DNA from: an uncultured Clostridia bacterium
Lineage (GTDB): Bacteria > Bacillota > Clostridia > TANB77 > CAG-508
Assembly: GCA_944386365.1 (NCBI GenBank)
Contig: CALXAT010000003.1
Location: 12,407 to 76,406 of the forward strand
Length of the DNA: 64,000 bases
Direction of reading: 5' to 3'
Each line of letters opens with the position of its first letter. Position 1 is the stretch's first letter. Below the pieces are notes generated by a model that saw nothing but the letters and a program-made list of their open reading frames with translations, ran no database searches and was not told the DNA's origin. The position numbers and the translations under genes are program-made. Positions 5,108 to 27,849 of the stretch are shown here, in pieces.

Positions 5108-5222
5108 ATTCCTCTCCTAATTTTAATTTTTCTATATTGTATACCATTTTCTCTATTTTTAAAAGGGGGTAATGTTAATTTGTTAAATAAATCTTATGGA
5201 AATAAGCTTATGTATGTTAAGC

Positions 5223-5251
5223 TTGAAAAGGATTACATAATGTGATATACT
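5223..5251 (+). promoter_or_regulatory. Sigma-A type promoter for the M20 hydrolase gene
   Basis: TTGAAA (5223-5228), 17-nt spacer, TATACT (5246-5251), with TG at 5243-5244 (extended -10). An AAGCTTA/TAAGCTT inverted repeat abuts the -35. Confidence 0.55.
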
Positions 5252-5282
5252 TTCTATGATTTTTTTGAAAGGAAAATAAATT

Positions 5283-6666: not shown

Positions 6667-6826
6667 TATAATTTCTGTAAAATATTCTTCTTAAAGACAA
6701 TAAATATAAATTTGGTTTTTCTTCCTTCTCCAAATCTCCCTCTTCTAAATCTTTTGCAAAAATTCTAATCTTGTGTCTAACACATCAAATTCATCAATGA
6801 TTCCTTTTTGTAAAGTTATTTTTGTA

Positions 6827-6852
6827 GCACCATAAATATTGGTGCATTTTTT
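6827..6852 (+). terminator. Rho-independent terminator about 160 nt after the M20 stop
   Basis: GCACCA (6827-6832), 7-nt loop, TGGTGC (6840-6845), then ATTTTTT. Confidence 0.5.
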
Positions 6853-6981
6853 GTACTCCAATAGCTTTCTGAATGTCTTTTTTCTTCATTTTACTTACTT
6901 CTCTCTTCTTTTATTTATATAAAAATATTATTGTAACATGGTTTATTTTTGCTTTCAACAAGTAAATATTAGTAAAACTTA

Positions 6982-7854: not shown

Positions 7855-7876
7855 AAGATACTATGAGGTGATAAAA

Positions 7877-9151
7877 ATGTTTTTCATATCTTTAATAATT
7901 GCATTATTATGTCTTATCTGCTCAATATGTATCAATATTAATTGGATTGCTGACATTTCATGTTATTTAGGCTATTTCTTGGCAATTTATCTCGTAACTT
8001 TTGTAGCCATTATTCCAGGATTTAATTATATTTTTAACTTAATTAGTTTGTTATTTCATAAAAAAGGAAAAAAATCCTGCACTAAAAAAGACGATGATGT
8101 TACGATTTTAATACCAGTATATAATGCAAAACAATCAATACAAGAAACACTTGATTCCATCAAAAAACAAAAATATTGTGGGAAGATTTATGTAAAAATC
8201 ATTGATGATGGTTCAACTGATGGAACTTTAGAATTACTAAAATCAATGAATTTAGATTCTAATATGACATTGATAGAAACCAAACACCAAGGAAAAGCAA
8301 ATGCACTTAACAAAGGATTACAAACTGTATGTACAGATTATACCATTACAATTGATAGTGATACAATTTTGCATCCATTAGCTATAAGAAATATAATGAA
8401 AACATTAATAAATTCCAATAAAAAAACAGCTGCAACTGCAGGTTGTTTATTTGTAAAAAATGCAAAAAAGAACTTTATTACAAAACTACAAGAATGGGAT
8501 TATACCTTAGGTATATTTGGTGTAAAACTTGTTCAAGGAAATTACAATTCCACTTTAGTTGCCCAAGGTGCTTTTAGTGCCTATAAAACAAAACTATTAA
8601 AAGAAATTGGTGGATGGCAAAATTGTGTAGGAGAAGATATTGTTTTAACTTGGAAATTATTAAGTAAAGGTTATGAAACCAATTTTGCAAAAAATGCGAT
8701 TGCTTATACGGTTGTTCCAGAAAAATATAGGGCTTTAGGTAAACAAAGAAAAAGATGGGCTAGAGGTATGATAGAAGCTTTTAAAAAGAATAAAACATTC
8801 ACATCAAAAAAGATGTCGTTGAAATCTAAATGCTTAATATTCTTCAATATCTTTTTCCCTTTTATCGATTTAGCACTTCTTATATTTGTACCACTTAGCT
8901 TAATCTTCTTAGCATTTGGAAATCCGTTATTACTTGGTTGGATTTCTTTACTGGTTATTCCATTAGGACTATTATTATGCTTACTAATCGAAATCAAAAG
9001 AAAGAATATGCTAAAAGAAATTGATTGTAAATTAGAAAGAAGAAGCATCTTAGCTTTTATTGCTTATATTTTAATATATGCTTTTATCTTGGCTCCTTAT
9101 TGTTTAATGGGATATATTTCAGAATGTATAAATTTAAAAAAGAAATGGTAA
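7877..9151 (+). CDS. Processive family-2 glycosyltransferase, IcaA/PgaC-like (poly-beta-1,6-GlcNAc synthase type)
   Basis: Motifs LIPVYN, IIDDGSTDGT, IDSDT, GEDIVLT and QRKRWARG (QxxRW). TM helices at both ends. The ATG at 7877 lies 8 nt after GAGG; the ORF track begins at a GTG at 7868. Confidence 0.85.
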   Translation: MFFISLIIALLCLICSICININWIADISCYLGYFLAIYLVTFVAIIPGFNYIFNLISLLFHKKGKKSCTKKDDDVTILIPVYNAKQSIQETLDSIKKQKYCGKIYVKIIDDGSTDGTLELLKSMNLDSNMTLIETKHQGKANALNKGLQTVCTDYTITIDSDTILHPLAIRNIMKTLINSNKKTAATAGCLFVKNAKKNFITKLQEWDYTLGIFGVKLVQGNYNSTLVAQGAFSAYKTKLLKEIGGWQNCVGEDIVLTWKLLSKGYETNFAKNAIAYTVVPEKYRALGKQRKRWARGMIEAFKKNKTFTSKKMSLKSKCLIFFNIFFPFIDLALLIFVPLSLIFLAFGNPLLLGWISLLVIPLGLLLCLLIEIKRKNMLKEIDCKLERRSILAFIAYILIYAFILAPYCLMGYISECINLKKKW

Positions 9152-9161
9152 CTATTATATA

Positions 9162-9197
9162 GGAAAGGAACTACATGTTCCTTCCTTTTCTCTTTTT
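9162..9197 (+). terminator. Rho-independent terminator of the GT2 gene
   Basis: GGAAAGGAAC / GTTCCTTCC stem (one bulge), 5-nt loop, then TTTTCTCTTTTT. Confidence 0.7.
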
Positions 9198-9220
9198 AGT
9201 ATAGAGTAATTGGTATTTTC

Positions 9221-9249
9221 TTGAAGTATACATAATTTTATGTTATAAT
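9221..9249 (+). promoter_or_regulatory. Strong sigma-A promoter of the HD-domain gene
   Basis: TTGAAG (9221-9226), 17-nt spacer, TGtTATAAT (9241-9249). Confidence 0.65.
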
Positions 9250-9337
9250 AAAAGGTGATAACATTGTTGTAAAAGTCTTCCTTGCGAGACATCACGATTT
9301 TGCAAGAGGACATTTAATTAAAAAGGAGGAACACACT

Positions 9338-10510
9338 ATGTTAAACAAAGAAATTTTGAATTTCGAAAATCTCAAAGCAGTCAACGAGGCATTCAAACGC
9401 CTCAACATTCTGCGTCGGTGGACATCCGTTACCACTGATGACAAGTACAACGAACTGGCAAAACAGGCGTTGAATTGCATCACTGCCTATATGCTTGCAT
9501 CCGTTTCTGAAGCTAATGGTAACATTGTCAATTGGGAACGTTTTCCTAAGATTGCTATTTACCGTGCGTTTCAGAAGGTTTACGTGTATTTCGATACAGG
9601 TGAACACATCATTGATGAGATTTGCCGCATTGGACAGATTAACAAGGATGCTTTTAACAAGGCAACCACGGAAATTATTCAGGAACTCACCAATGAAGAT
9701 TTTTCTGATTTTCTGTCCGAAGGTATCGGAACCAATGAAATGCGCATCTATCGCGCAGCAACTAAAATTGCAACCTTGGTAGAACTCGAGGAAAATTCTT
9801 CATTAATGAAGAATACTGGCGAATACAGAGACAAGTTTTCTGAAATCCAGCATTCTTTGGAGAAATTTTCTGATATTCCTGGTGTAGCTGAATTTTCTGA
9901 CCCCAGTGGAGATTTCTTCAAGTTACTCTTGAAGATTTCAAAGCTTAGAAATCAGAACCGCTGGGCAGTACAGCCTTACACTGTAAACTGTTCTGTTCTG
10001 GGGCATCTGTTTGACACAGGCGTACTGGCCTACTTTATTGGCTTAGAGCATTTCGAAGGTGAGGAAAAAATCGCCACAAAAATGTTCTTTATGGGAATTT
10101 TCCACGACCTCGCAGAGGTGTGGACTAGTGATGTTCCCTCTCCTATTAAAGACAGAATACCAGGATTTCGGGCAGCGACAGAAAAATATGAAGATTTGAT
10201 GCTTGAGCGCAATCTTTATAGTAAGGTACCTGACTTCTTGGAAAAAGCAATCCGCTCAGTCATGTTTGAAGAAGAAGCAAACTCTTCTTATTACAAACTG
10301 ATGAAAGCGGCAGACTACCTGTCCGCCGACTCAGAATGTTGGAGACAGTATGTCGCTGGATCGCGTGATCTGTACTTCTTGTCTCCTGGGATTATGGGAT
10401 ATGACGACAAGTTAACCAATGGCAACTTGTTTCTCCCTCCCATCTGCAAGTCACTTCATGATTACTTTCTGAAATATAGTCAGAAAGTGATGCAGCAATT
10501 CGAGATTTAA
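9338..10510 (+). CDS. HD-domain phosphohydrolase, YfbR/HD_3-like; apparently a tandem fold with a degenerate N-terminal half
   Basis: 390 aa. The C-terminal half has LRNQNRW...LGHLFD...FHDLAEVWTSDVPSPIKD (H..HD..D). The N-terminal half repeats the RLNILRRW...helix pattern without the metal ligands. AAAGGAGG lies 8 nt before the ATG. G+C is about 47% in hand-counted line 9361-9420. Confidence 0.7.
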   Translation: MLNKEILNFENLKAVNEAFKRLNILRRWTSVTTDDKYNELAKQALNCITAYMLASVSEANGNIVNWERFPKIAIYRAFQKVYVYFDTGEHIIDEICRIGQINKDAFNKATTEIIQELTNEDFSDFLSEGIGTNEMRIYRAATKIATLVELEENSSLMKNTGEYRDKFSEIQHSLEKFSDIPGVAEFSDPSGDFFKLLLKISKLRNQNRWAVQPYTVNCSVLGHLFDTGVLAYFIGLEHFEGEEKIATKMFFMGIFHDLAEVWTSDVPSPIKDRIPGFRAATEKYEDLMLERNLYSKVPDFLEKAIRSVMFEEEANSSYYKLMKAADYLSADSECWRQYVAGSRDLYFLSPGIMGYDDKLTNGNLFLPPICKSLHDYFLKYSQKVMQQFEI

Positions 10511-10516
10511 AATCAT

Positions 10517-10559
10517 CCAGACAGCCTTGCTCTCTTTGAGCTTGGCTGTTTGGTTTTTT
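10517..10559 (+). terminator. Rho-independent terminator of the HD gene
   Basis: CCAGACAGCC (10517-10526) pairs with GGCTGTTTGG (10544-10553). There is an inner GCTC/GAGC stem, then TTTTTT. Confidence 0.75.
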
Positions 10560-10657
10560 ATTACCTTATTTTATAAAATCTATATACATATAGCATATTT
10601 TTATTGTTTATGATATAGTTAAATAAATTCTAATTTATTAAGAGGTGATATATATAT

Positions 10658-11413
10658 ATGATAATCGACAGTTTTGATAATCAATCAGAAGCAAAAATTA
10701 ATCCAAAGCCAAAAGAAAATAGATTAACATGTGATGCTTGCATTATCACATTTTCAAATATTATAGAAGACTATGTTCTTAGCCATTACGATTGTGAAAA
10801 AATTGGTGAGCTAAAATTTGTAACTGGTCCCCTATCTGTTTATCAGTTAGCATATAAAGGTAAAATCATTGCATTTTATAAAACCTATATGGGTGCACCT
10901 ACTGCTGTTGGCGCTTTAGAAGATGCTACTGAACTATTGGATACCAATCAGTTTATTGTATTTGGTGGAGCAGGCTCTTTAGATAAAGAAATCTCTCATG
11001 GTAAAATTATGGTTCCAACATATGCTTATCGAGATGAAGGAACTTCTTATCATTATGCCTCACCTAGTGATTATATTAAAATAGAAAATGCTTCTATTGT
11101 TTCAAACTTTATGAAAGAACATCATCTTCCTTTTGTAGAAGGAAAAACTTGGACAACAGATGGTTTTTATAGAGAAACACTTCATAATTTTGAAAAAAGA
11201 AAACAAGATGGCTGTATTTCAGTAGAAATGGAATGTTCTGCATTACAAGCAGTTTGTAATTTTAGAAATCTAGAATTATATTATTTCTTAACCAGTGGTG
11301 ATTTACTAGATGCTCCTGTATGGGATAGTCGAAAAAAAGAAAATGATTTAACTGGAACACAACATGATTCTACTCATTTTGAAATTGCATTAGAATTAGC
11401 AGTTTCAATATAA
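10658..11413 (+). CDS. Nucleoside phosphorylase family protein (PNP/UDP family 1, uridine-phosphorylase-like)
   Basis: 251 aa. Has FGGAGSL, a YRDEGTSYHY segment and VEMECSAL, which are characteristic of the family. G+C is typical of the host. Confidence 0.75.
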   Translation: MIIDSFDNQSEAKINPKPKENRLTCDACIITFSNIIEDYVLSHYDCEKIGELKFVTGPLSVYQLAYKGKIIAFYKTYMGAPTAVGALEDATELLDTNQFIVFGGAGSLDKEISHGKIMVPTYAYRDEGTSYHYASPSDYIKIENASIVSNFMKEHHLPFVEGKTWTTDGFYRETLHNFEKRKQDGCISVEMECSALQAVCNFRNLELYYFLTSGDLLDAPVWDSRKKENDLTGTQHDSTHFEIALELAVSI

Positions 11414-11508
11414 ATTTATAGGTTGAAAATTGACAAATGTAAATTAATATGTTATTATTTAGTTACAAAATAAATGAACTTTGAATATCGTTAGTGTTCA
11501 AATCATAA

Positions 11509-11543
11509 AAGTATGTGTACCGCGAATGCACATACTTTTTTTT
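11509..11543 (+). terminator. Rho-independent terminator (+ strand) after the phosphorylase gene
   Basis: AAGTATGTG / CACATACTT 9-bp stem, 11-nt loop containing ACCGCGAAT, then a T8 run. Confidence 0.75.
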
Positions 11544-11546
11544 ATG

Positions 11547-11577
11547 CTAAAAAATAGAGCAGACCGCGAATCTGCCC
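11547..11577 (-). terminator. Rho-independent terminator (- strand) closing the feoAB-small ORF unit
   Basis: On the minus strand: GGGCAGA-TTCGCGG-TCTGCTC followed by TATTTTTT. The loop is the complement of the same ACCGCGAAT 9-mer. Confidence 0.65.
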
Positions 11578-11593
11578 TACGACTAAATACAAG

Positions 11594-11734
11594 CTAGTTA
11601 GTCTTAACTTTGTTGTCATTTTGCATTTGTTGTTTTTGCTGCTCTACCTGTTGTTGTAAGAAAAAGTTTTTTTCTTTTTCTTTTATGTACTTGTCAACAA
11701 AATACAAAATTAAATCGCTAGTATTCAAAATCAT
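11594..11734 (-). CDS. Possible small Gln/Lys-rich protein (46 aa) downstream of feoB
   Basis: Hand-translated as MILNTSDLILYFVDKYIKEKEKNFFLQQQVEQQKQQMQNDNKVKTN. GGGAGG lies only 2 nt before the ATG (8 nt before the TTG at codon 3). The ORF is followed by the minus-strand terminator. It is below the ORF-track length cutoff. Confidence 0.3.
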   Translation of the reverse strand: MILNTSDLILYFVDKYIKEKEKNFFLQQQVEQQKQQMQNDNKVKTN

Positions 11735-11910
11735 AACCTCCCTTCCGCCTTTAAGAAAAGGCTGGCCTTCTCTTTGCGTAAGGTTGGTAATATATTACAA
11801 TATTTTACATTAAAAAACAAGCGAACAGTAAAATTTTCCTAAAAAGTTTTAATATAAATACATATTTGCACCAAATCCTTTGATTTTACTAACATATTCT
11901 TTCCTTAAAT

Positions 11911-14037
11911 CTAAAAAACATGATAAACCAAAGTTGTCAACATACAAAGAACAATTCCACAAACCGTTGGAATTAGAAAACCAATTGCTGTCCATTTCCA
12001 ACTTCCAGTTTCTTTTTTAATGGTAAGTAAAGTTGTCGCGCAAGGAAAATGAAACACTGTAAATAGCATGACATTAATTGCTGTTAATATCGTCCAACCA
12101 TTTTGTCTTAAAATTTCTCCTATGGCAAATGTATCTTCCATATTGACCAATGATGTTCCTTGCATATAACACATAAGAATAATCGGAAGTACAATTTCAT
12201 TTGCAGGTATCCCAAATATAAAGGCTGTTAGAATATACCCATCTAATCCCATCAGTTTTGCAAATGGTTCTAAAAAATTTGCTATAATTGTTAATAAACT
12301 TTGTCTTTGCACTCCAATATTGGCAAATAACCATATGACAAGTCCCGCAGGAGCTGCAACCGCAATTGCTCTTCCTAATATAAAGATGGTTCTGTCAAAA
12401 ATAGATCTAACTAACACTTTTAAAAATTGTGGTTTTCGATATGGTGGTAATTCTAATACAAAGGATGATGGCATTCCCTTTAATATGGTTTTAGATAAAA
12501 TTTTAGATATAACTAATGTCATAATAATACCTAAAATAATGACTAAAATAACGCATAAAGTAGATAAAATAGAGGCACCAATTCCTCCTATTGTCCCTGC
12601 TATAAATATGGTTGCAATCGTAATTAAAAAAGGAAATCTTCCATTACATGGAACTAGATTATTGGTTAATATTGCAATTAATCTTTCTCTTGGGGAATCT
12701 ACGATTCTACATCCTGTTACGCCACAGCTATTACACCCAAATCCCATACACATGGTAATCATTTGTTTCCCACTACAACAAGCTTTTTTGAAAAATCCAT
12801 CCATATTAAATGCAATTCTTGGTAAATATCCCAAATCTTCCAATATTGTAAATAATGGAAAAAAGATAGCCATTGGTGGTAACATAACCGATATGACCCA
12901 TGTTAATGTTTGATAGACGCCTAGTATTAGCATATTTGATAGCCATTCAGGAGAATGTATATATGTAGCAAATTCTATTAATTTTTCTTGTATATTGCCA
13001 AATAAACGAAATAGAATTTGTGAAGGATAATTAGCTCCTACAATGGTAATCCAAAATATAAGCAATAAAAATAATATCATAATTGGAATGCCATATTTTT
13101 TAGAAGTTAAAATTTTATCAATTTTTCTATCTCTATTGGCATAATCCTTGTTTTCAAATTTACATACCGTTTTTCCTATTTTTTCTGCATCTTTTACAAT
13201 AGTTGATACGATTTCTTCTTTAAATGCTTCTTTAGTAATATCTTCCTTTTCTAATTTCTCTAAAGCTTTTTTTCTAGATTCTTTTATATGAATATTATCC
13301 ATCAACTGTATATTTAAATTTTTTTCTATTTCTTTTAAAATACCTTCTTCCCCATCTAGAACTTTTATACTTATCCATCTTGCTAATTTTCCCTTTATGT
13401 TATATTTTTCCATAATTATTTTTTCTATTTCATAAATCGCTTTTTCTATATTTTCATCATACTGTACTTGGTATGTCTGATATATTTTTTCTTTTCCATT
13501 ACATACACTTCTAATTACCTTCAATAAATTATTTAATGTCTTTTTCTTTCTGGCTATAACCCCTACAACCGGTACTTTTAATATGTTAGATAATGCTTCT
13601 AAATCAATCTTTATTTTCTTTTTTTTCGCTTCATCTAATAAATTAACACAAACAATTAGATTATCTGTAATTTCTATGATTTGTAATACTAGATTTAAAT
13701 TTCTTTCTAAAGAAGTGGCATCAACAACAACAATTGTGCTATCTGGATTCCCAAAACAAATATAGTTTCTAGCAATTTCTTCTTCTTCTGAATGAGACAT
13801 AATGGAATATGTACCAGGAATATCAACAATTTCGTATTCTTCTCCTCTATACTCAAAATATCCAGTTGCATTTGCAACTGTCTTACCTGTCCAATTACCC
13901 GTATGTTGATTCATTCCTGTTAGATTATTAAATATAGTTGATTTTCCAACATTAGGATTTCCTGCTAATGCAATTGTATACGCACTTTTTCGTTTTGTTT
14001 CCTTTTGCTTGATAGATAACTTTTCTATTTTATTCAT
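11911..14037 (-). CDS. feoB: Ferrous iron transporter FeoB
   Basis: 708 aa. Has the N-terminal G domain (GNPNVGKSTIFNNLTG, DIPGTYS) followed by a polytopic membrane domain. Confidence 0.95.
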   Translation of the reverse strand: MNKIEKLSIKQKETKRKSAYTIALAGNPNVGKSTIFNNLTGMNQHTGNWTGKTVANATGYFEYRGEEYEIVDIPGTYSIMSHSEEEEIARNYICFGNPDSTIVVVDATSLERNLNLVLQIIEITDNLIVCVNLLDEAKKKKIKIDLEALSNILKVPVVGVIARKKKTLNNLLKVIRSVCNGKEKIYQTYQVQYDENIEKAIYEIEKIIMEKYNIKGKLARWISIKVLDGEEGILKEIEKNLNIQLMDNIHIKESRKKALEKLEKEDITKEAFKEEIVSTIVKDAEKIGKTVCKFENKDYANRDRKIDKILTSKKYGIPIMILFLLLIFWITIVGANYPSQILFRLFGNIQEKLIEFATYIHSPEWLSNMLILGVYQTLTWVISVMLPPMAIFFPLFTILEDLGYLPRIAFNMDGFFKKACCSGKQMITMCMGFGCNSCGVTGCRIVDSPRERLIAILTNNLVPCNGRFPFLITIATIFIAGTIGGIGASILSTLCVILVIILGIIMTLVISKILSKTILKGMPSSFVLELPPYRKPQFLKVLVRSIFDRTIFILGRAIAVAAPAGLVIWLFANIGVQRQSLLTIIANFLEPFAKLMGLDGYILTAFIFGIPANEIVLPIILMCYMQGTSLVNMEDTFAIGEILRQNGWTILTAINVMLFTVFHFPCATTLLTIKKETGSWKWTAIGFLIPTVCGIVLCMLTTLVYHVF

Positions 14038-14125
14038 AAACGCCTCCTTTATTTTCTTTTGTTACCTATTGTATTGTATATAAATTATTCTTTTTTTGTG
14101 ACTATTTTTTACTTGTATCAAAGGT

Positions 14126-14359
14126 TTACAAAACTTTTATTTTTATATTTTCTGCATCTTCTTTTCGAATAGCAATTAAACTCCCTCTAAATTCAAAAGC
14201 TCTAGGATCTCCGGATGGACTTATTAAAACTGGTTTTATATTGGTTCCTTCTATCAAGCCTAAATCTAACAATCTTCTTTTTATCGTTTCTTCCCCTATA
14301 ATTTTATTGACAATTCCTATTTCTCCAATTGCTAATTCGTTTACTGTTTTTTCCTTCAT
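14126..14359 (-). CDS. feoA: Ferrous iron transport protein FeoA
   Basis: 77 aa with an SH3-like FeoA pattern (RRLLDLGLIEGT...). Lies immediately upstream of feoB. Confidence 0.9.
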   Translation of the reverse strand: MKEKTVNELAIGEIGIVNKIIGEETIKRRLLDLGLIEGTNIKPVLISPSGDPRAFEFRGSLIAIRKEDAENIKIKVL

Positions 14360-14451
14360 CTACATATAGCACCTCCATATTATGTTTAGTATATAGTATT
14401 CTTTTTTTTATTTTATGTTCAAGGTACTTTCTCCTTTACCCGAACAAAAGG

Positions 14452-14480
14452 TTGACATGGGACTATATTTATGGTAAGAT
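14452..14480 (+). promoter_or_regulatory. Candidate sigma-A promoter in the feoA / membrane-protein divergent spacer
   Basis: TTGACA (14452-14457), 17-nt spacer, TAAGAT (14475-14480). It lies about 207 nt upstream of the GTG at 14687. Confidence 0.35.
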
Positions 14481-14686
14481 AAATAGGTAGGAATTATATA
14501 TATTTTAAAATAAAAAACGATTTATTCTCTTGGTCTTAGTTACTGAGAATTTTTTATTTATTTATGTTTTATAATCAAATAAATCCATAAAAACAAACAT
14601 AAATTATGCATTACATATACATTATCATAAATTATGATAATCTAAAGATACCTTTTAAAATTATTATTTAGAAAGGAGTTGTTTTT

Positions 14687-15721
14687 GTGACGAAAAAAAT
14701 TGATTTTGAAAGAATTTTTAAAACCATGCAAAGATATCTAAAAAAGTTTTTTAAGATATTACCAAATGTTGTTATTCCATTACTTATCATGGTATTTATA
14801 CAAAATTGTTTTGGAACAAATCATAGTGTCATTGGAATTATTTTAATATTTGTCTGTATGTTAAAAGTAAATGAATTAAAAAGTGTTAAAACCTATATGC
14901 AAATGTCTTTTATGATGATTGTAATAGCTATCTTGGCAAGTGTTGCTAGTTTGAATTTATATACTTCCGTTGTCTTTAATCTAATAATTCCATTTATCAT
15001 TATTTATTTAACTACGGCAAAACAAAAAGAATCCAATTACTTTTTATATGGATATGAATATATTATGTTTCAAAGCTATCCCATTTCTATAGCAGAAATC
15101 CCTTTACGTATTTTAACAATCATCATAGCTTTAACTATTTGTTATATCTATATGAAATTTTATAATAGAAAAGAAAAAATTGATCATAATCTTGTTTCTG
15201 ATTTTGATTTAGTTGTATATAATATAAAACATATTAAAAAGGAACTAAATTTTAAGATTCCTAGAATTCGTTTTGCTGTTCGTACAGCCTTTATTTTATG
15301 GATTACTTGTGTTTTTATGGATTTTGTAACAGACAGAACCGTTAGAAGTTATTGGCTACCTTTAATTACCTATAGTTGTTTAGAAATTGATAATCAAAAA
15401 CAAAAAAGTAAACTACTTTCGCAAATTGGTGGTGCCACAATAGGAATTGGTATATTTATCATATTTTTCCATTGGATTCCTACAAACGCTTTGTTGGTTT
15501 TCATGGCAATTGCATTTACAGCTTTATTTACCATAAATAATCAATATCTAAAAAAAGCCATTGGTACAATTCTTGGTATGAGTTTTGTTATACCATCTCT
15601 AGGAGAATTTGGTGCAATTCTTTTAAGATATACATATGTTATGGTTGCTATATTTATTATTGCCATTTTTGAATATTTAAGAATTGTTGTCAGAAAAATT
15701 GAACGTCAAATTGCACAGTAA
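14687..15721 (+). CDS. Polytopic integral membrane protein (possibly FUSC/ArAE-like); function unknown
   Basis: 344 aa with multiple hydrophobic helices. GTG start 9 nt after AAAGGAG. Confidence 0.6.
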   Translation: MTKKIDFERIFKTMQRYLKKFFKILPNVVIPLLIMVFIQNCFGTNHSVIGIILIFVCMLKVNELKSVKTYMQMSFMMIVIAILASVASLNLYTSVVFNLIIPFIIIYLTTAKQKESNYFLYGYEYIMFQSYPISIAEIPLRILTIIIALTICYIYMKFYNRKEKIDHNLVSDFDLVVYNIKHIKKELNFKIPRIRFAVRTAFILWITCVFMDFVTDRTVRSYWLPLITYSCLEIDNQKQKSKLLSQIGGATIGIGIFIIFFHWIPTNALLVFMAIAFTALFTINNQYLKKAIGTILGMSFVIPSLGEFGAILLRYTYVMVAIFIIAIFEYLRIVVRKIERQIAQ

Positions 15722-15722
15722 T

Positions 15723-15760
15723 GTGCAATTTTTTGCATTATTGCACTTATTATATTTTTA
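15723..15760 (+). terminator. Terminator-like hairpin after the membrane protein gene
   Basis: GTGCAAT (15723-15729) / ATTGCAC (15740-15746), followed by a T-rich tract. An alternative TTGCACA/TGTGCAA pairing overlaps the stop codon. Confidence 0.4.
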
Positions 15761-15859
15761 TGATAAAATTTTTTCTGTAAAAGTATATTTATTAAAAATT
15801 TATATAATTATATTATTTTTATTATATATTGCACATATACTTTTACAGGAGGATTTTAT

Positions 15860-16852
15860 ATGAAAAATAAATATAAAGTAGCTATTGTTGGTGCCAGTGG
15901 TCTTGTTGGAAGAACCGCTTTAAAAGTATTGGAAGAAAAAAGTTTTCCAAATATTCAATATACCTTATTCTCTTCTGAAAAGTCTGCTGGTAAAAAAATC
16001 GAATTTTTAGGAACGAATTATATTCTTCAAGAATTAAAAGAAGATTCTTTTGACCAAAAATTTGATTATGCCATTTTTTGTGCAGGAGGAGATATTTCTA
16101 AAAAATATATACCATTAGCAGTTGAACACAATTGTATTTGCATTGATAATAGTAGTGTATATAGAATGGATAAAAATGTTCCTTTAGTTGTTCCAGAAGT
16201 AAACATGCAAGAAGCCTTTAAAAACAAAGGAATTATTGCCAACCCAAATTGTTCTACTATTCAAGCAGTTGTTCCTTTAAAACCATTAGATGATGCATAT
16301 CATATAAAACGAATTGTATATTCAACATATCAAGCAGTTTCTGGTGCTGGAAGAGAAGGTATTGAGGACTTAGAAAACGGAATAAATGGATTTGCTCCAA
16401 AAAAATTTCCCTATCCTATCTTTAATAATTGTTTACCGCACATAGATGTTTTTATGGAAGATGGTTATACAAAAGAAGAACACAAGATGATTAATGAAAC
16501 TAGAAAAATTTTAAATAAACCTGATTTACCTATTACTGCTACAACCGTCCGTGTTCCTGTTTTAAATTGTCATAGTGAATCTATTAATATCGAATTTGAA
16601 AAAGAATTTGATCTATATGATGTAAGACAATTATTACAAAACTTCCCTGGTGTTATTGTCGTAGATGATATAGAAAAAAATTATTATCCTATTGCTACAA
16701 AGGCTGACGGATATGACGAAGTCTTTGTTGGAAGAATTCGAAGAGATTTTAGTATTAAAAATGGACTTAATTTATGGGTTGTAGCAGACAATCTTAGAAA
16801 AGGAGCCGCTAGTAATGCTATTCAAATTTTAGAAAATATGATTGCTGTATAA
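15860..16852 (+). CDS. asd: Aspartate-semialdehyde dehydrogenase
   Basis: 330 aa. Has the Rossmann start VAIVGASGLVG and an active-site NPNCSTIQ. Confidence 0.93.
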   Translation: MKNKYKVAIVGASGLVGRTALKVLEEKSFPNIQYTLFSSEKSAGKKIEFLGTNYILQELKEDSFDQKFDYAIFCAGGDISKKYIPLAVEHNCICIDNSSVYRMDKNVPLVVPEVNMQEAFKNKGIIANPNCSTIQAVVPLKPLDDAYHIKRIVYSTYQAVSGAGREGIEDLENGINGFAPKKFPYPIFNNCLPHIDVFMEDGYTKEEHKMINETRKILNKPDLPITATTVRVPVLNCHSESINIEFEKEFDLYDVRQLLQNFPGVIVVDDIEKNYYPIATKADGYDEVFVGRIRRDFSIKNGLNLWVVADNLRKGAASNAIQILENMIAV

Positions 16853-21532: not shown

Positions 21533-21618
21533 TTCCTCCTTTTATTTTTTTGTTTTTTATCTTTTGATTCATACCTTATTAGTATACAATTTTATATGTA
21601 TTTTTGCAATATTTTTGT

Positions 21619-21653
21619 CTAAAAAAGGTAAGATATTTAATATATCTTACCTT
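21619..21653 (-). terminator. Rho-independent terminator closing the HTH-ATPase-HNH cassette
   Basis: Perfect 12-bp stem AAGGTAAGATAT (21625-21636) / ATATCTTACCTT (21642-21653) with a 5-nt loop, followed on the minus strand by TTTTTT. Confidence 0.8.
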
Positions 21654-21744
21654 AAAAATATGGTTTATAATTGTTTTTCTAATGATTTTGACCTTTTTAT
21701 GACTTTTATTGTCAGTATGCAAACAAACTTGTTTCATAATTTAG

Positions 21745-22752
21745 TTATGAAATATTTTCATCAAATAACGTATCTATAATATCATTTTTTAATTTACTTA
21801 AGGATACATTTTTTATTTCTTCTTTAGATGTATATCCTAAAATAAATTTTAATACATTTTCATCTTGCGAAATTGTTGTTCCTAATCTTTGATTATATAC
21901 ATCTATAATTTTCTCATTCATACTCTTGTGCTTTTGAATAATATTTTTAACAACATTCCTATGTGCTCCATCATATATTTCTTCTATATTTAATATCCTT
22001 GCATTCTTTAAAAATCTCCCATATTTATCTTCCATATCTTCCTTTTGTATTTTTATTTTGTAATCTGGCAATTCATAAGTAAATACTTTTTTATCTTCTA
22101 CCCCTTCTTCAAATGGGTACATATTTATATCATAATGAAAACTTTTTTCTCTCTTTTTTTGATTACAAATTTTACAAGATGGTATTAAATTATATAGTGA
22201 TAATGCAAATATAGGATATTCTGATTTTGAATAATAATGGTCAAAATCAGGTCTAATAACTTTATTTTTTCCTTTCATTATTGTATTGGTATACTCTCTA
22301 TTACAATAAGGACAAACATTCACATTTAAAATGCTCATAATTTCATATGCCATATTGCCTTTAGATATTATCTCTCCATAATTAAATATATCTCTTAATA
22401 AATAATTCATTATTTTTTGTTCAAAAGAAAACTCTAATTTCACACCTCTTTTAGGAATTAATTTTTCAAACGTTTCTGCATATTGATCATATATATTTAA
22501 GATTGTTTTCATATCACCGCTTATCAATTGCTCTAAATCATTTTTTATCCTTGTATTTAAAAAGGTATTTGCTTCTTTTATAAATTCATCTATTTCTGTT
22601 ATTTTTTCCTTATTCTTCGTTCTTCTTTTATTTATAATTTTTTCTTTGTCATGCACTTGTTTCTTTGTAATTTTGTTAATAACTACTTTTGGCTTTATTT
22701 TTTGTGTATATTGTTCTATATTATAGGTATTCATTGGATTAATTTTTATCAT
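21745..22752 (-). CDS. HNH endonuclease (PtuB / TIGR02646-like) with a Lys-rich N-terminal region and a C-terminal helical extension
   Basis: 335 aa. The motif is C147-P-Y-C150 ... D171-H172 ... N188 ... C193-K-I-C196-N197 (CxxC..DH..N..CxxCN). The start overlaps the ATPase stop by 14 nt. An alternative ATG at 22734 lies 4 nt after that stop. Confidence 0.8.
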   Translation of the reverse strand: MIKINPMNTYNIEQYTQKIKPKVVINKITKKQVHDKEKIINKRRTKNKEKITEIDEFIKEANTFLNTRIKNDLEQLISGDMKTILNIYDQYAETFEKLIPKRGVKLEFSFEQKIMNYLLRDIFNYGEIISKGNMAYEIMSILNVNVCPYCNREYTNTIMKGKNKVIRPDFDHYYSKSEYPIFALSLYNLIPSCKICNQKKREKSFHYDINMYPFEEGVEDKKVFTYELPDYKIKIQKEDMEDKYGRFLKNARILNIEEIYDGAHRNVVKNIIQKHKSMNEKIIDVYNQRLGTTISQDENVLKFILGYTSKEEIKNVSLSKLKNDIIDTLFDENIS

Positions 22753-24673
22753 ATTTATCTCTCATTTCATTAATATTATTTCTTATTAGATTTTCACCTA
22801 TCTCATCTATCATTTTTATATCATCTGCTGTAATGTCTTTATTCTTTATTTTTCCAATAAGATTTCTTATTTTCTCTTCTGAAAATGCTCCAATTGTATC
22901 CTCCATGAAATATTTATCTAATAGCAAATATAGTATATTCCCTGCAAAAGTTCTTTCATTTTCTTGTTTTCCTAATGTTATAACACTATCCTTTTTTAAG
23001 TCTGACAATACATATGGAGAATTTGAAGTAAATATAATTTGAATATTACGGTCTGCATAATTTGTATTAAAAAACTTAATAATTAAATAGATTAACTTTC
23101 TTTGCCATTCTGGATGAAAATATAAGTCTGGTTCATCTAAAATGATTAATAAGTTTTTATTTGTACCTATCTTATCATTATGAATTGCTACGTAAAAACT
23201 TGAATAGAGATTTAACAAGGCTTGTTCTCCTGAACTCAAACCTTTAAATTCAATATTAAACATATTTAGAAGATTTTTATCATGCTTCACTATATCACAA
23301 AACATTTTGATTTGCTTTTTTGAAAGAAGTATAATGGGTATAAAACTTTTTAATATCGTATCTTTTTTCAAATTAGATTCTTTTGAAAATAATTCATTAC
23401 AGATTATTTCTGTTTCGTTTGCATCAATTATTTTCTTTAAATTTTCAATCGTTTTTATGTATTTTTTATTGATTCCTGTAAAAAATTGATTCCATTCATC
23501 CATCCATGAATTTATAGTTTCTGTCCTATATGTCTTTTGACATATCGCTCGCAATTTATTTTGATTTAGTTTGATTATTTTATCTAAAAATGATAAAAAC
23601 ATTTTTTCTGGCTCATCATCTTGTATTTCATTTAATATTTCTTTCATATATGCAATAATGAGATTTGTATTCATTTCATTATATAATTCTTCAAAAAACT
23701 GATCGATTAGTATGAATTGCACTGTATAAATAACTTTTTCTTTATCTTTAGTATTTATTATCTTTTCTAATAACTTTTCATAAATTTGTTTTTCTTTATC
23801 ACTTGGTTCTATGTCTAAATGTCCTACTAATTTTTCATTTTTGTCATCTATTTTTTTTCTGAAGTATCTTAATTCATCTAATGAAGATTCAAACATCCCC
23901 ATTTGATTATAACATTTCGGAACCATTGTCAAATTCTCAAAATTAAATATTCTATCTTCATTTAAGTATACTAAGTTTCGTATTGTCATTTCTTTTTTAG
24001 CTTCTTGTATATTTTGAGAATATAAAAATCTTTCATCTATATATTGTTCATTAATAAGACCTCTATTTAATAGCCTTTGTGTATTCCCGTACTTTTTATA
24101 TATAGCTTCTTCTAATGAAACATTAATAAAGTGATTATTGAATTTAGACGGTAGAATTTGCCTATTTCGTATATTTAATACATTTGAGGAATAGATGGTT
24201 GTCATTTTATCTGTTACTGATTTACAAATACTATCAGCTGTTTCTCTCTGTTCATATGATATTATTTTAGGTTTTTCTTCACATTCTATTTGTATGTTCT
24301 TTGCTAATTCTTTTTCTAAATATATTTTAAATTTATTTTCATGCTTAAGTACTAAAATAAAATTATAATTTTTATAATGATTTGTAAATAATATTTGTGT
24401 AAGTAAATGTAATAAAACAGATTTTCCCGAACCATTTTTTCCTATTATCGCTGTTATATTTGATATATTTCCATTTTCTTTTAAATTATAAAAATTTGGT
24501 ATATAATTTTCATTTTTAATGATTTTCAATCTTTTATTTTTATAGCTTATTCTATATTTGTCAGAAAAATTAAAATCTGTCTTTGAAAGATTTTTACTCG
24601 TTTCTTTTGATATTTCATAATTTTCTATATTTTCTTCTAATCTAAAATAACATAATTCTATTTCATTTTCCAT
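22739..24673 (-). CDS. Large ABC/SMC-type ATPase (PtuA / AAA_15-AAA_21-like)
   Basis: About 644 aa. Walker A GKNGSGKS is at ORF-track residues 80-87. A helical insert of about 390 aa follows, then signature-like GLSSGEQ (480), Walker B LLIILDEPD, and IIFTSNSP (H-loop region). The ATG at 24673 lies 8 nt after GGAG; the ORF track starts at a TTG at 24679. Confidence 0.8.
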   Translation of the reverse strand: MENEIELCYFRLEENIENYEISKETSKNLSKTDFNFSDKYRISYKNKRLKIIKNENYIPNFYNLKENGNISNITAIIGKNGSGKSVLLHLLTQILFTNHYKNYNFILVLKHENKFKIYLEKELAKNIQIECEEKPKIISYEQRETADSICKSVTDKMTTIYSSNVLNIRNRQILPSKFNNHFINVSLEEAIYKKYGNTQRLLNRGLINEQYIDERFLYSQNIQEAKKEMTIRNLVYLNEDRIFNFENLTMVPKCYNQMGMFESSLDELRYFRKKIDDKNEKLVGHLDIEPSDKEKQIYEKLLEKIINTKDKEKVIYTVQFILIDQFFEELYNEMNTNLIIAYMKEILNEIQDDEPEKMFLSFLDKIIKLNQNKLRAICQKTYRTETINSWMDEWNQFFTGINKKYIKTIENLKKIIDANETEIICNELFSKESNLKKDTILKSFIPIILLSKKQIKMFCDIVKHDKNLLNMFNIEFKGLSSGEQALLNLYSSFYVAIHNDKIGTNKNLLIILDEPDLYFHPEWQRKLIYLIIKFFNTNYADRNIQIIFTSNSPYVLSDLKKDSVITLGKQENERTFAGNILYLLLDKYFMEDTIGAFSEEKIRNLIGKIKNKDITADDIKMIDEIGENLIRNNINEMRDKYDKN

Positions 24674-24770
24674 TAACAATTCTCCTATCTATAAATTCTC
24701 TATAAAATTATTTTATTACTTCTTCTCGATATTCTAGTATTTCTTTATCATATATCGTTTGTAAATTTAG

Positions 24771-24992
24771 TCAAAATGTAGATTTTACTCCAAATACATA
24801 TTCTAAAGCCTTGGCAAACTTAGGTGAAATTTCTTTTTCTCCATTTATAACTTCACTAACGTGTTTGGCAGAAAAAACCGTTCTTTCTGCCAACTCTTCT
24901 TGATTCATATTATTTTCTTCTAATTTTTCTTTTATACTTATTCCTGGATGTATAATAAAATCAAGTGATACACCAGTTATATTTGTGTGCAT
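24771..24992 (-). CDS. HigA/VapI-type XRE-family HTH protein (73 aa) with no partner toxin
   Basis: The pattern IIHPGISIKEKLEENNMNQEELAERTVFSAKHVSEVINGEKEISPKFAKALEYVFG matches the HigA antidote HTH pattern (HPGE.L.E...s...lA....v....i..i..g...it...A..L...fG). It is the first gene of the cassette. Confidence 0.75.
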   Translation of the reverse strand: MHTNITGVSLDFIIHPGISIKEKLEENNMNQEELAERTVFSAKHVSEVINGEKEISPKFAKALEYVFGVKSTF

Positions 24993-25103
24993 AATAATCC
25001 ATTACTCCTCTCACTATTTTTAATATCTTAATCGGTCGTTTTTCAATTATACTATTCTATTTTAAATTTTGCTCTCTTTTCCGTCATTTTTATCTATTTG
25101 ATA

Positions 25104-25132
25104 ATTATACCATCTTTTTTCCTAATTGTCAT
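25104..25132 (-). promoter_or_regulatory. Sigma-A promoter of the HTH-ATPase-HNH cassette
   Basis: Minus strand: ATGACA (25132-25127), 17-nt spacer, TGgTATAAT (25112-25104). Confidence 0.55.
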
Positions 25133-25170
25133 TATTTTATCCATTTATATTTTCATTGTATATTCACACA

Positions 25171-25204
25171 ATAAAAAGCAAAAAATGTAGGAAATTTCCT
25201 ACAT
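25171..25204 (-). terminator. Rho-independent terminator of the beta-helix protein gene
   Basis: Perfect palindrome ATGTAGGAAATTTCCTACAT (25185-25204) 2 nt after the stop, followed on the minus strand by TTTTTGCTTTTT. Confidence 0.8.
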
Positions 25205-25206
25205 TT

Positions 25207-27849
25207 TTATTCTATACCTAAAATTATCTTTCTCATTATAGAAACATCACTTATTGATACTTCTTCATTTAAATTTGCATCGGCAGCTAATTTTTGTATG
25301 TCATTTAATTCTTCTATCTCTGTAAGATATTTACGAGCAATACTAACATCTGTTAAAGTAAGTTTTCCGTCACCGCTTATATCACCTAACACAATTAATG
25401 TAAACTCTTTTCCGTTACTATCTTCTAAGATATCTCCTGTTGAAATAATGTCTTCTTCTGTTAATTCTTTATCTTCATGTTTGATAGTATAGTCATCTTG
25501 CAATAATGTAAATGTTTCCTTAAATTCTTTCATAGTTGTTTCTGAATCTATATTCATAATATTATTATCTTTTATCTGATAGCCATCTTTATTATACATA
25601 ATATAAAACTTTACTTTTGAAACATTTCCAGCTTTATCAGTAGCTGTTAATTCATATTGTCCTTCGTCTGTTAATTCACTTCCTAAAGAATATCCTTTTA
25701 CAACTTGTCCATCTAATGTTAATTGAACTGTTTCTAATTGTTTATCACTAACATTTGGAATAATACTTTTAGCATATATCTTTTCATTTTCTACACCTGA
25801 AATTTGAGGTGGACTTTTATCTATTGTTATATTTACATTCTTCTCTTCTGATTGTCCATCATAATTTGAATATTTAGCTTCTACTGTATAAATTCCATTA
25901 TCTGATAATTTTACTTCTGTATTATTAACCTCATTTCTATTTATTATTACCTGGGTTTGTATTCCCTCAGTTTCTTCATATTTTATAGTTATATCTTTAT
26001 TAGTTATCGTGTCATTATTAATATTTTCTCCATCGCTATTTAATATTTGCACTTCCTTTTTATATGATAATGGTATACTTAAATTAATTCCTATTTGTTT
26101 TAAATTCTGATAAAATTCTTGATAAAACAACTTTATACCTCTTCCTGAAGTAGTTTCATAATTTTTAATATCTATTTTTTCTGGCAGTTTATATATTCCT
26201 GTTATATTTCCACTATCACTTCCAGTATAATATTCATTATTATAAAACATGTATAAATTATTATCATTATATTTTGAATTTTGATCATCAATTTTTAATC
26301 CATCTATAAAAATATTTGGCAAATATAAATCATATCCAAAATTATGGAGAATATTCGTATCATCATATGATACCTTAAAATATACTAATTGTTGTGCATT
26401 TTTAGGTTTGTATGTACAATTCGTAATATATATATTTCCATCCCATGTACTTCCATAATCTTGCCTTAGCTCAATCAAATAATTATTTGATAATATTGTT
26501 GAATTAGATATATTCAAATTTCCGCTACCTATAACAGTTATTCCCTTTACTCCTATTGTACAATTATTAATAGTAAGATTATGAACGCCTGTATGGGAAT
26601 CAATTCGATTTAATGTACAATCTTCATATGTAACATCTTTTGCATAATGTGTTCCTCCTATCCCCCATCTATTTTCATCTTCTATATCATTTGAACTAAC
26701 ATTTCTAATTTCTATATTAACAACATTTTCTAAAAATAAATCATAATTTGATTTTTTTTCATATTTATGTGAAAATAAAATACAATCCTTTATATCAACA
26801 TCTGCAACTTCATATAGATATATAAATCCTTTATATGGTCCTCCTATATAATCTTTATTGTTAACTGTATGATTTATATTTTGTATAATTGTATTGCTTC
26901 TTTTACAACATATATTTCTATAAAAATATCCTGTATCTTGTTCATATTTTTCCTCCGGCAATATAGTAACAAAATTACCATTTTCTACTGTTACAGTTTC
27001 TTCTGGTATTGGCATAATTAATATTTCAGATATATTATCAAAATCCCATTGAATTTCATTTAATATATTTCCTTCATTATCAATTTTAAAAATATCTCTT
27101 TGTGATTTTCCTTCATCTTGATTAGTTCCATATCTTATATATTGCATTTTATCTTCATTGTAAACAATACACATTGCATTTCCATATCCAGATAGTTTAG
27201 GAATCTTTGTTGTCATTTTATTAATTTTTATATTTTCTAGAATATTTTTATCAGTAATTGTTATCGCAGCTTGTTTTGATTCTATTACAAACATCATACA
27301 CTTTCTTGTATCTAAATTATTTATCTCTTCATCATGTATTATAAAAGTCGCATTATTCCAATCTGTACTTGTCTGAATTGGAATAAACTTTGTTTGTTCT
27401 AATTTATATATATGATATGTATCTAATGTCGCCTTAACATTATAACCATAATAATTGGCATATACATGTGCATCATAAATTGCCTGATAATTGTCAAATC
27501 CTTCTTCTGAACTTGTTCCAAAGCTTTCATACGTTATGTATTTATTTCCTTGTTCGTCTGTATATACCGGTATATCTTTATGACTCTCTACTATTTCTTG
27601 TATTCCTTTTGAATTTTCTGCTAATGGTGCAAAAATATTATTGTTAAACTCACTTACTTCATCTATTGTATCATACCAATTTTCCTTCATTTCTTTTAGT
27701 TCATTTGGATTGCTATTTTCTGTTTTGTTTATACTGTTTGAAAAATATATATAAGCTAAAATTAATACTAAAAGTATGCTATTTAGTACCAAAAATTTTT
27801 TCAAAGTTTTCATTATCTTGATTTTATTTAGTCTTCTTATATTTTTCAC
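25207..27849 (-). CDS. Secreted or anchored right-handed beta-helix protein with Ig-like modules and a C-terminal dockerin-like domain (putative polysaccharide depolymerase/lyase)
   Basis: 880 aa. Has an N-terminal signal/anchor. Repetitive N.T/NCTI turns (NLTINNCTIGVKGITVIGSGNLNISNSTILSNN) are typical of pectate-lyase-fold proteins. The C-terminus carries two EF-hand-like segments, DISGDGKLTLTD and DANLNEEVSISD. GTG start 6 nt after AAAGGAG. Confidence 0.6.
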   Translation of the reverse strand: MKNIRRLNKIKIMKTLKKFLVLNSILLVLILAYIYFSNSINKTENSNPNELKEMKENWYDTIDEVSEFNNNIFAPLAENSKGIQEIVESHKDIPVYTDEQGNKYITYESFGTSSEEGFDNYQAIYDAHVYANYYGYNVKATLDTYHIYKLEQTKFIPIQTSTDWNNATFIIHDEEINNLDTRKCMMFVIESKQAAITITDKNILENIKINKMTTKIPKLSGYGNAMCIVYNEDKMQYIRYGTNQDEGKSQRDIFKIDNEGNILNEIQWDFDNISEILIMPIPEETVTVENGNFVTILPEEKYEQDTGYFYRNICCKRSNTIIQNINHTVNNKDYIGGPYKGFIYLYEVADVDIKDCILFSHKYEKKSNYDLFLENVVNIEIRNVSSNDIEDENRWGIGGTHYAKDVTYEDCTLNRIDSHTGVHNLTINNCTIGVKGITVIGSGNLNISNSTILSNNYLIELRQDYGSTWDGNIYITNCTYKPKNAQQLVYFKVSYDDTNILHNFGYDLYLPNIFIDGLKIDDQNSKYNDNNLYMFYNNEYYTGSDSGNITGIYKLPEKIDIKNYETTSGRGIKLFYQEFYQNLKQIGINLSIPLSYKKEVQILNSDGENINNDTITNKDITIKYEETEGIQTQVIINRNEVNNTEVKLSDNGIYTVEAKYSNYDGQSEEKNVNITIDKSPPQISGVENEKIYAKSIIPNVSDKQLETVQLTLDGQVVKGYSLGSELTDEGQYELTATDKAGNVSKVKFYIMYNKDGYQIKDNNIMNIDSETTMKEFKETFTLLQDDYTIKHEDKELTEEDIISTGDILEDSNGKEFTLIVLGDISGDGKLTLTDVSIARKYLTEIEELNDIQKLAADANLNEEVSISDVSIMRKIILGIE

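Follow-up and report, generated by a model that had tools for sequence, protein, structure and literature searches.

Do the three co-directional genes that lie inside a capsule locus of an uncultured Clostridia bacterium form a defence system, and is that system of a new kind? The genes, for a helix-turn-helix (HTH) protein, an ABC-type ATPase and an HNH nuclease, occupy positions 21619-25208 of the window, the whole 64,000-nucleotide stretch that was analyzed (contig CALXAT010000003.1, assembly GCA_944386365.1). The original prediction, made from the sequence, read them as a Septu-like cassette headed by its own HTH gene and departing from Septu in architecture. The three open reading frames (ORFs) were recovered on the minus strand with the lengths given there. 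The ATPase-HNH pair is a member of PDC-M62, an existing family predicted to act against phages and a long-form relative of Septu PtuA/PtuB, and represents no new kind of system. We put the probability that it is a PtuAB-like ('Septu-like') nucleic-acid-degrading defence module at about 0.7. The cassette is neither a three-gene system nor a new architecture, and its seemingly unusual features are already contained in existing family models. Related loci are referred to by number (L001 and so on).

Family and structure of the ATPase-HNH pair

The coding features of the cassette, all on the minus strand, are:
24771-24992, minus strand: HTH ORF, 73 amino acids (aa)
22739-24673, minus strand: PtuA-like ABC-type ATPase, PDC-M62A, 644 aa from ATG (PADLOC, Pfam, profile search, Foldseek); the ORF listing begins two codons earlier, with TTG, at 24679
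21745-22752, minus strand: PtuB-like HNH nuclease, PDC-M62B, 335 aa (PADLOC, Pfam, AlphaFold2 (AF2), Foldseek)

An AGGAG is located 7 nucleotides (nt) upstream of the ATPase ATG at 24673. The PADLOC hidden Markov model (HMM) for PDC-M62A (PDLC04735) matched the ATPase with an E-value of 3.4e-72, residues 28-640 aligning to profile positions 12-598 of 633. The model for PDC-M62B (PDLC04743) matched the HNH protein with an E-value of 1.4e-53 (residues 28-329 on profile positions 6-323 of 328). The two genes are adjacent on one strand in the order A then B, and a 14-nt overlap joins the end of the ATPase gene to the start of the HNH gene, as originally reported. The PADLOC HMMs for Septu were far weaker on both proteins, with PtuA at ~2e-15 on the C-terminal third of the ATPase only and PtuB at 2.5e-7 over part of the HNH protein. 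Pfam matches were to HTH_3 (4.5e-10) for the 73-aa ORF, to AAA_21 and AAA_15 for the ATPase and, at threshold only, to HNH for the nuclease.

PDC systems are 145 candidates predicted by 'guilt-by-embedding' (bioRxiv 10.1101/2024.01.29.577857), and in the B. cereus group the genes called PDC-M62 are largely those also called Septu (PMC11811056). PDC-M62 was likewise the call for the pairs of B. cereus and L005. The pair in the window has the two-gene order with overlapping ORFs that is usual for the family, in which A is ~600-750 aa and B ~330-400 aa, and its HNH protein has the long N-terminal region. The capsule-locus clade differs from the rest of the family in being a small divergent branch (the HNH family comprised 3,980 representatives at E ≤ 1e-3, only 12 of which were at ≤ 1e-30), in having Asn in place of the H-loop His, and in being embedded in a capsule locus, not in restriction-modification, BREX or defence islands. 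Two features had been put forward as novelties, ~100 extra aa in the HNH protein and ~75 aa before Walker A in the ATPase. Both are standard PDC-M62 architecture, since the family HMMs match both proteins end to end. The Septu-like label was broadly right as to the PtuA/PtuB logic and fold and imprecise as a name, as the proteins belong to the candidate family PDC-M62.

The ATPase begins with a beta-rich N-terminal extension (residues 1-70), followed by Walker A (GKNGSGKS, 78-85) and a long insert (~90-465). The second half holds the signature (GLSSGEQ, 478-484), Walker B (508-514, within LLIILDEPD, 508-516), the H-loop position (Asn551, within FTSNSP, 548-553) and a C-terminal helical extension (575-644). 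All four motifs had been named in the original prediction and are conserved in the family alignments. Over 67 homologs G78, N80, G81, G83, K84, S480, G482, D513 and E514 were invariant, and the C-terminal 70 residues were the most conserved stretch outside the nucleotide-binding motifs. The canonical ABC H-loop His is absent. Position 551 is Asn in the capsule-linked clade (46/67 sequences) and His in distant homologs. The Asn551 codon, within FTSNSP, is located at 23021-23023, and all of the capsule-linked clade has Asn there.

The AF2 model of the HNH protein (predicted local distance difference test (pLDDT) 94) consists of an N-terminal helical domain (9-142), a zinc-finger beta-beta-alpha-Me core (143-205) and a C-terminal helical bundle (242-332). 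The predicted motif was present and conserved in homologs (C147-P-Y-C150, D171-H172, N188, C193-K-I-C196-N197). The catalytic residues D171-H172, N188 and N197 were invariant over 97 homologs, and the CxxC...CxxC zinc site was conserved. To judge from sequence, Walker A, the signature, Walker B and the HNH catalytic His and Asn are intact.

Searches of the Protein Data Bank (PDB) with either single sequence gave marginal matches only, and family profiles were needed. The profile of the 67 ATPase homologs matched retron Ec78 PtuA (6e-21), Septu PtuA (8EE4, 1e-17), PARIS AriA (6e-16), OLD (4e-10) and Rad50/SMC (~1e-8; Rad50 2e-8). The 16 best Foldseek matches of the ATPase AF2 model were all PtuA chains. 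For the HNH model one PDB entry alone, the type I-A retron HNH nuclease (PtuB) 9n69_F, matched significantly, both in sequence and in fold. Repair ATPases (RecF/RecN/SbcC) as best matches had been named as the outcome that would speak against the prediction; Rad50/SMC at ~1e-8 stood well below PtuA at 6e-21.

In profile and fold searches, Septu PtuA and PtuB (PDB 8EE4/8EE7/8EEA) are among the nearest relatives of known structure. They share with the pair the two-gene operon of ATPase then HNH, the ABC/SMC-type split head with an insert, an ATPase whose C-terminal extension is conserved and a nuclease with a helical C-terminal domain. The proteins in the window differ from them in that the ATPase is ~180 aa longer with a larger insert, the Walker A Lys is at 84 instead of 43 (Septu EcB88), the HNH protein is ~100 aa longer with an additional N-terminal helical domain, and sequence similarity does not extend beyond the HNH core and the Walker B/H-loop region. 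The pair of the type I-A retrons (Ec78/Eco7 and Ec83, comprising PtuA, PtuB, reverse transcriptase (RT) and non-coding RNA (ncRNA)) supplied the best PDB matches for both proteins (9vkz, 9kjx, 9n69), whereas the retron model NF041760 and TIGR02646 were far under cutoff on the proteins of the window. No RT ORF was found beside the pair, where the neighbours are capsule genes, and no Rfam family reached its gathering score in the window; identity as a retron effector was rejected for want of both the RT gene and the ncRNA family. The search for tRNA genes found none in the window. PARIS AriA, OLD/Gabija and AbiL-type AAA_21 ATPases belong to the same ABC-type AAA_15/AAA_21 superfamily and match more weakly than PtuA. 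Unlike the pair, they have TOPRIM, DUF4435 or RloB nuclease domains or partners and no separate HNH protein.

The defence reading is supported by this PtuAB-like ranking in profile and fold searches, by the setting of the B. cereus PDC-M62 pair in a defence island (between McrBC, caspase-like peptidase, AbiJ/Abi_C and SLATT genes), by the AbiL neighbours of the L108 copy, by the presence of the HNH family on 54 plasmids, by the sporadic distribution of the pair and by an insert that is hypervariable in each of two independent lineages. Several results weigh against it. The PADLOC PtuA and PtuB matches are partial, and both proteins fall below the curated thresholds, the ATPase with 39 bits against a cutoff of 500 for the retron-Ec78 PtuA model NF041760 and the HNH protein with 13.7 bits against 52.15 for TIGR02646. 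The Foldseek template modelling scores were low (0.24-0.45), and the ATPase AF2 model was moderate (pLDDT 77.5) with the insert poorly predicted. The contact between the C-terminal extension of the ATPase and the C-terminal domain of the nuclease, and the stoichiometry of the complex, are assumed by analogy. PDC-M62 is itself one of the 145 predicted candidates, with no experimental test found in the literature searched. No other defence genes adjoin the cassette in the window, and no relatives were found in IMG/VR viral contigs. The pair also looks fixed in its species (23/23) and is syntenic across deep divergence, which is unusual for defence genes.

Hypervariable insert and candidate mechanism

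The ATPase insert (23280-24410, residues ~90-465; 8265-9390 in L005/L010) varies more than any other part of the locus, by a wide margin, and does so in two independent lineages. Between the window and L001, 45/94 nt differences over 12.3 kb were located in the ATPase gene (binomial p 3e-13). It held 11/18 between L001 and L176 (p 1.6e-5), a comparison in which the genes for HTH, HNH, Wzz and tyrosine kinase (BY-kinase) showed no differences. The aa changes concentrate at residues 151-287 and 431-447. All 62 ATPase differences between L005 and L010 fall within residues 89-463, and sequence entropy over 32 clade clusters peaked at residues 301-450. Beside the insert, the nuclease is constant, as are the C-terminal extension and nucleotide-binding lobes of the ATPase, and Wzz and BY-kinase are nearly invariant. 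Positive selection in the ATPase, taken as a ratio of nonsynonymous to synonymous rates (dN/dS) above 1, was not found. The ratio was ~0.5 with dS raised too, which indicates mosaic exchange of divergent alleles and not demonstrable positive selection. Variability of this form would be expected of a domain reading a rapidly changing partner.

A mechanism can be proposed by analogy with characterized systems. In PtuAB complexes the PtuA C-terminal extension clamps the helical C-terminal domain of PtuB (PMC12819146). In Septu, Walker and HNH mutants lose defence, tRNA-Tyr is cleaved and DNA is nicked, and stand-alone Septu PtuA has been reported to be ATPase-deficient. The ATPase of the window would oligomerise through its head and insert domains, and its conserved C-terminal helical extension would pair with the C-terminal helical bundle of the nuclease, holding the HNH protein. 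In uninfected cells the nucleotide-bound complex would keep the nuclease silent. The H-loop Asn suggests that ATP serves mainly as a bound ligand or switch, with slow or no hydrolysis. Release of the nuclease would follow a phage cue that the hypervariable insert probably reads. The freed enzyme would then nick DNA, cleave a tRNA or both, so that phage replication stops and growth is arrested.

The insert might further read capsule-type-specific phage parts such as depolymerase tail fibres or spikes, with sensor alleles and serotypes being exchanged and selected together. It fits this idea that L005 and L010 differ both in their capsule variable regions and in their ATPase inserts, with HNH, Wzz and BY-kinase ~98-99% identical, and that Septu is reportedly sensitised by a phage tail fibre. 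Simple physical linkage with allele mosaicism accounts for the same data, and we regard such a coupling of receptor and immunity as unlikely. A second local hotspot was seen in L005/L010 at 12501-12800, the 3' end of the BY-kinase gene, where 24 nt differences fall in the C-terminal tail within an otherwise near-identical 5 kb. The L001 and L176 assemblies, two independent ones of variant-allele strains, both end (position 1) precisely where the HTH stump lies, upstream of the cassette. These contig breaks may reflect strain heterogeneity of the capsule variable region, and the linked serotype is unreadable there.

Leader ORF and transcription signals

The non-coding and decayed features of the cassette are:
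25181-25208, minus strand: upstream intrinsic-terminator hairpin, dG -13.0 kcal/mol, z -5.4 (terminator scan and folding)
25104-25132, minus strand: sigma-70-type promoter-like site ATGACA-17-TGgTATAAT, the top-scoring site of the region
24964-25017, minus strand: HigB/RelE-like toxin remnant, final 18 codons (tblastn with the 105-aa L002 protein, 67% over residues 88-105)
24708-24992, minus strand: decayed HigA-type HTH gene (HTH_3, TIGR02607, L002 alignment)
21617-21653, minus strand: downstream intrinsic-terminator hairpin, dG -13.5 kcal/mol, z -5.3, then T6

The 73-aa ORF had been taken for a dedicated gene heading the operon. It proved to be a truncated, pseudogene-like HigA stump left over from a neighbouring HigBA-M78 module, and the pair does not appear to need it. 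It ends at TGA 24771-24773, where the HigA motif FWLNLQ has a conserved Trp, and the frame runs for 20 codons past the TGA (...STF*LNLQTIYD...) to a stop at 24708-24710. The TIGR02607 HigA model scored 33.3 bits on the ORF as called and 54.7 bits with the TGA read as Trp (cutoff 47.7). Alignment with the N-terminus of the 363-aa HigA-HTH/Peptidase_M78 (IrrE-like) protein of L002 gave 85.6% identity over 90 aa, with Trp in L002. In the window, the half of the ancestral gene that encoded the M78 peptidase has been lost by deletion. Upstream of HigA-M78 in L002 lies the 105-aa protein, with weak HigB/YoeB Pfam matches. Both the 105-aa toxin and the 363-aa fusion are intact in L002-L004 and L029. 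The TGA is common to all sampled strains of the species of the window (L001, L171, L173, L176). The leader ORF is thus homologous to the HTH of a HigBA module with a HigA-M78 fusion but non-functional as a toxin-antitoxin (TA) system, its toxin being cut to 18 codons and its antitoxin truncated with a nonsense codon.

It is quite unlikely that the HTH protein serves to control the ATPase-HNH operon, whether as a dedicated regulator of its transcription or in the manner of an antitoxin. The ORF follows the promoter-like site and precedes the ATPase gene in the same direction as the pair, its 73-aa product still contains a complete HTH_3 domain, it is kept in all sampled strains of the species, and a HigA-type HTH gene stands directly upstream of the pair in L002-type carriers too. 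Against these points stand the nonsense codon at the conserved Trp with the higB remnant upstream, and the fact that L029 retains intact HigB and HigA-M78 genes without the ATPase-HNH pair. Other carriers have other leaders, namely a 177-195-aa membrane protein in L005-type loci, an insertion sequence (IS) element in L015 and AbiL genes in L108, and distant family members have no conserved HTH partner. The variety of leader genes, together with HigBA without the pair in L029, identifies the two-gene ATPase-HNH pair as the functional unit. In L015 the IS element (6474-7834, HTH_28 and rve integrase-core ORFs) immediately precedes the ATPase gene.

The predicted promoter-like site at 25132-25104 scored 11/12 with its TG extension and is likely to be the promoter of a transcript of HTH stump, ATPase and HNH. 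The region held 34 promoter-like sites against 36 expected by chance from shuffled sequence of this AT-rich DNA. Transcription would start at this site and probably end at the hairpin at 21617-21653. That hairpin was missed by the terminator scan because it has too few G-C pairs, and was found by folding. Both hairpins fold far better than shuffled sequences. The claim that terminators bracket the cassette stood as regards the hairpins themselves; the downstream one is ancestral to the locus and lies outside the inserted unit, being kept in the empty site of L030, there behind the gene for an 880-aa dockerin protein. The upstream hairpin lies directly past the stop of the 880-aa gene in the window and marks the upstream edge of the segment missing from the L030 empty site.

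Distribution, empty sites and alternative roles

The cassette was found where it had been placed originally, with polysaccharide genes on one side (the 880-aa dockerin protein and UDP-glucose dehydrogenase) and Wzz/BY-kinase/CpsB on the other. The 880-aa protein (25207-27849, minus strand), which has a C-terminal type I dockerin, lies inside the polysaccharide locus directly upstream of the cassette; a 980-aa dockerin protein takes the same place in L015, and L030 has an orthologue of the 880-aa protein. The low G+C that had been remarked on is correct for the cassette (0.23) and not distinctive, the adjacent capsule genes having 0.20-0.27. Since the value matches that of the surrounding capsule genes it is no mark of foreignness, and foreign insertion as read from low G+C was ruled out.

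In the carriers found via the ATPase the pair lies directly upstream of Wzz/BY-kinase/CpsB/phosphoglucomutase (PGM) and downstream of locus-specific polysaccharide genes. Four lineages, with Wzz 60-100% identical, have the pair in this slot upstream of Wzz. Amino acid identities to the window were:
L001: ATPase 96%, HNH 99%, Wzz 99.6%, PGM 99%
L002 / L015: ATPase 65-66%, HNH 70-71%, Wzz 78-81%, PGM 91% (L015)
L005 / L010: ATPase 43%, HNH 44%, Wzz 60%, PGM 85%

Identity declines in step for the pair and its flanks. A recent private insertion was ruled out by use of the same slot in lineages with Wzz merely 60% identical. In the species of the window, the cassette was present in 23/23 contigs with identical BY-kinase or CpsB.

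The first 17 loci, found via the ATPase, suggested that the block is invariably conserved in capsule loci, an outcome that the original prediction had set against itself. This was overturned by a Wzz-anchored scan of species-representative genomes, in which neither ATPase nor HNH was found within 10 kb of Wzz in any of 80 related gut Clostridia species (0/80). These non-carriers, all uncultured, came from samples of human, chicken, rabbit, mouse and rumen origin. As a positive control, the same scan detected 17/17 known carriers.

The empty site of L030 defines the segment subject to presence and absence:
21719-25203: present in the window, ~3.5 kb; short spacer in L030

The two loci aligned by blastn at 30643-25204 = 4321-9788 and 21657-15727 = 9872-15872, and by alignment L030 homology restarts at ~21718, about 27 nt past the HNH stop. 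L030 has the same 880-aa dockerin gene and flanks of ~82% nt identity. In L029 the only part missing relative to L002 is the 3.0-kb ATPase+HNH segment. No repeats, integrase, transposase or target duplication were found at the indel edges in the window.

In L108 the pair stands alone, with 96% nt identity to L005/L010 over 2.96 kb, in unrelated flanks and beside AbiLi/AbiLii, which is evidence that it moves as a discrete unit. There (4676-10959) it lies directly behind a DUF6414 gene and AbiLi/AbiLii, with a GH10-dockerin protein and a CBM_X2 surface protein flanking. In ~55 more distant metagenome loci the HNH gene was always directly downstream of the ATPase gene, and none was near Wzz. The ATPase and HNH genes are therefore inherited, lost and moved together as one unit. 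Phage records (n=50,697) gave one weak partial match and, with the null result in viral contigs, a phage or prophage origin was rejected. In the simplest history the pair has long resided in the capsule loci of a gut Clostridia clade, at the point where the variable half meets the constant half, has been cleanly lost several times and has occasionally moved as a unit; some transfer between capsule loci by recombination is also conceivable.

Apparent fixation and deep synteny leave room for a capsule-related role, instead of or besides phage defence, in which an ATPase-guided nuclease promotes recombination or serotype switching where the variable and constant halves meet, or in which the pair polices or maintains the locus. 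Four lineages share the slot, divergence of the pair tracks that of the flanks, and L005 and L010 have different variable regions beside the same pair. The reading nevertheless appears as improbable as that of the HTH controller: 80/80 related species build the same locus type without the pair, distant family members never adjoin Wzz or BY-kinase, the pair is stand-alone beside AbiL in L108, and its own promoter and terminator set it apart from the capsule transcripts.

Slightly less probable again is a selfish addiction or mobile nuclease module (TA-like or homing-like) of no benefit to the host. PtuAB-type effectors are toxic on release, the pair moves as a discrete unit and TA debris lies nearby (the HigBA stump and Panacea-domain genes). 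The indel edges, however, carry no integrase, transposase, terminal repeats or target duplication. Clean loss has occurred many times (80 non-carriers), and the pair is therefore not strongly addictive. Neutrality also accounts less well than antagonistic co-evolution for the hypervariability of the insert. A housekeeping DNA-repair ABC ATPase with its nuclease (RecF, RecN or SbcCD/Rad50-Mre11-like) is effectively refuted by distribution and profile ranking, since SMC_N, AAA_23 and Rad50/SMC heads are among the weaker matches only, with Rad50/SMC at least 12 orders of magnitude under PtuA and restricted to the Walker A region, there is no SMC-length coiled-coil, the partner is HNH and not the Mre11 phosphoesterase, and 80 related species lack the pair.

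If the PtuAB-like module is active, an uncultured, very low-G+C lineage of gut Clostridia joins the hosts of Septu-type immunity. The features distinctive of this locus are the embedding in a capsule locus, the pattern of fixation and loss, the H-loop variant and the hypervariable insert. With intact motifs, the H-loop His-to-Asn change and natural sensor-domain alleles, the pair is a compact natural test case for PDC-M62, the H-loop variant bearing on ATP hydrolysis versus binding alone. The locus is also a clean example of a defence module within a surface-polysaccharide locus, fixed-looking in one species, present in four deep lineages and absent from 80 species, a pattern that could inform the joint inheritance of phage-receptor loci and intracellular immunity.

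The idea of a dedicated defence hotspot in front of Wzz was not supported, non-carriers having mostly a sortase trio, UDP-glucose dehydrogenase or dockerin/cohesin-like proteins there. A few non-carrier slots contain accessory genes, for example Rpn/Transposase_31 or HTH-Panacea. The trio was seen in 22/71 related species (L018 7951-9986 and 21 other loci among L018-L097) and consists of a 171-184-aa secreted or anchored protein, a ~205-aa sortase and a ~282-aa membrane protein without Pfam match. A Transposase_31/Rpn-like gene occupies the slot in 4 species. Between HNH and Wzz, L011 has a 348-aa gene (MqsA-like zinc finger, HTH_3, SocA_Panacea) and a 42-aa ORF (11090-12536); in L109 and L110, too, Wzz is displaced by ~1.7 kb. 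Three non-carrier species, L068 among them, have a 351-aa gene similar to the 348-aa gene of L011 immediately before Wzz.

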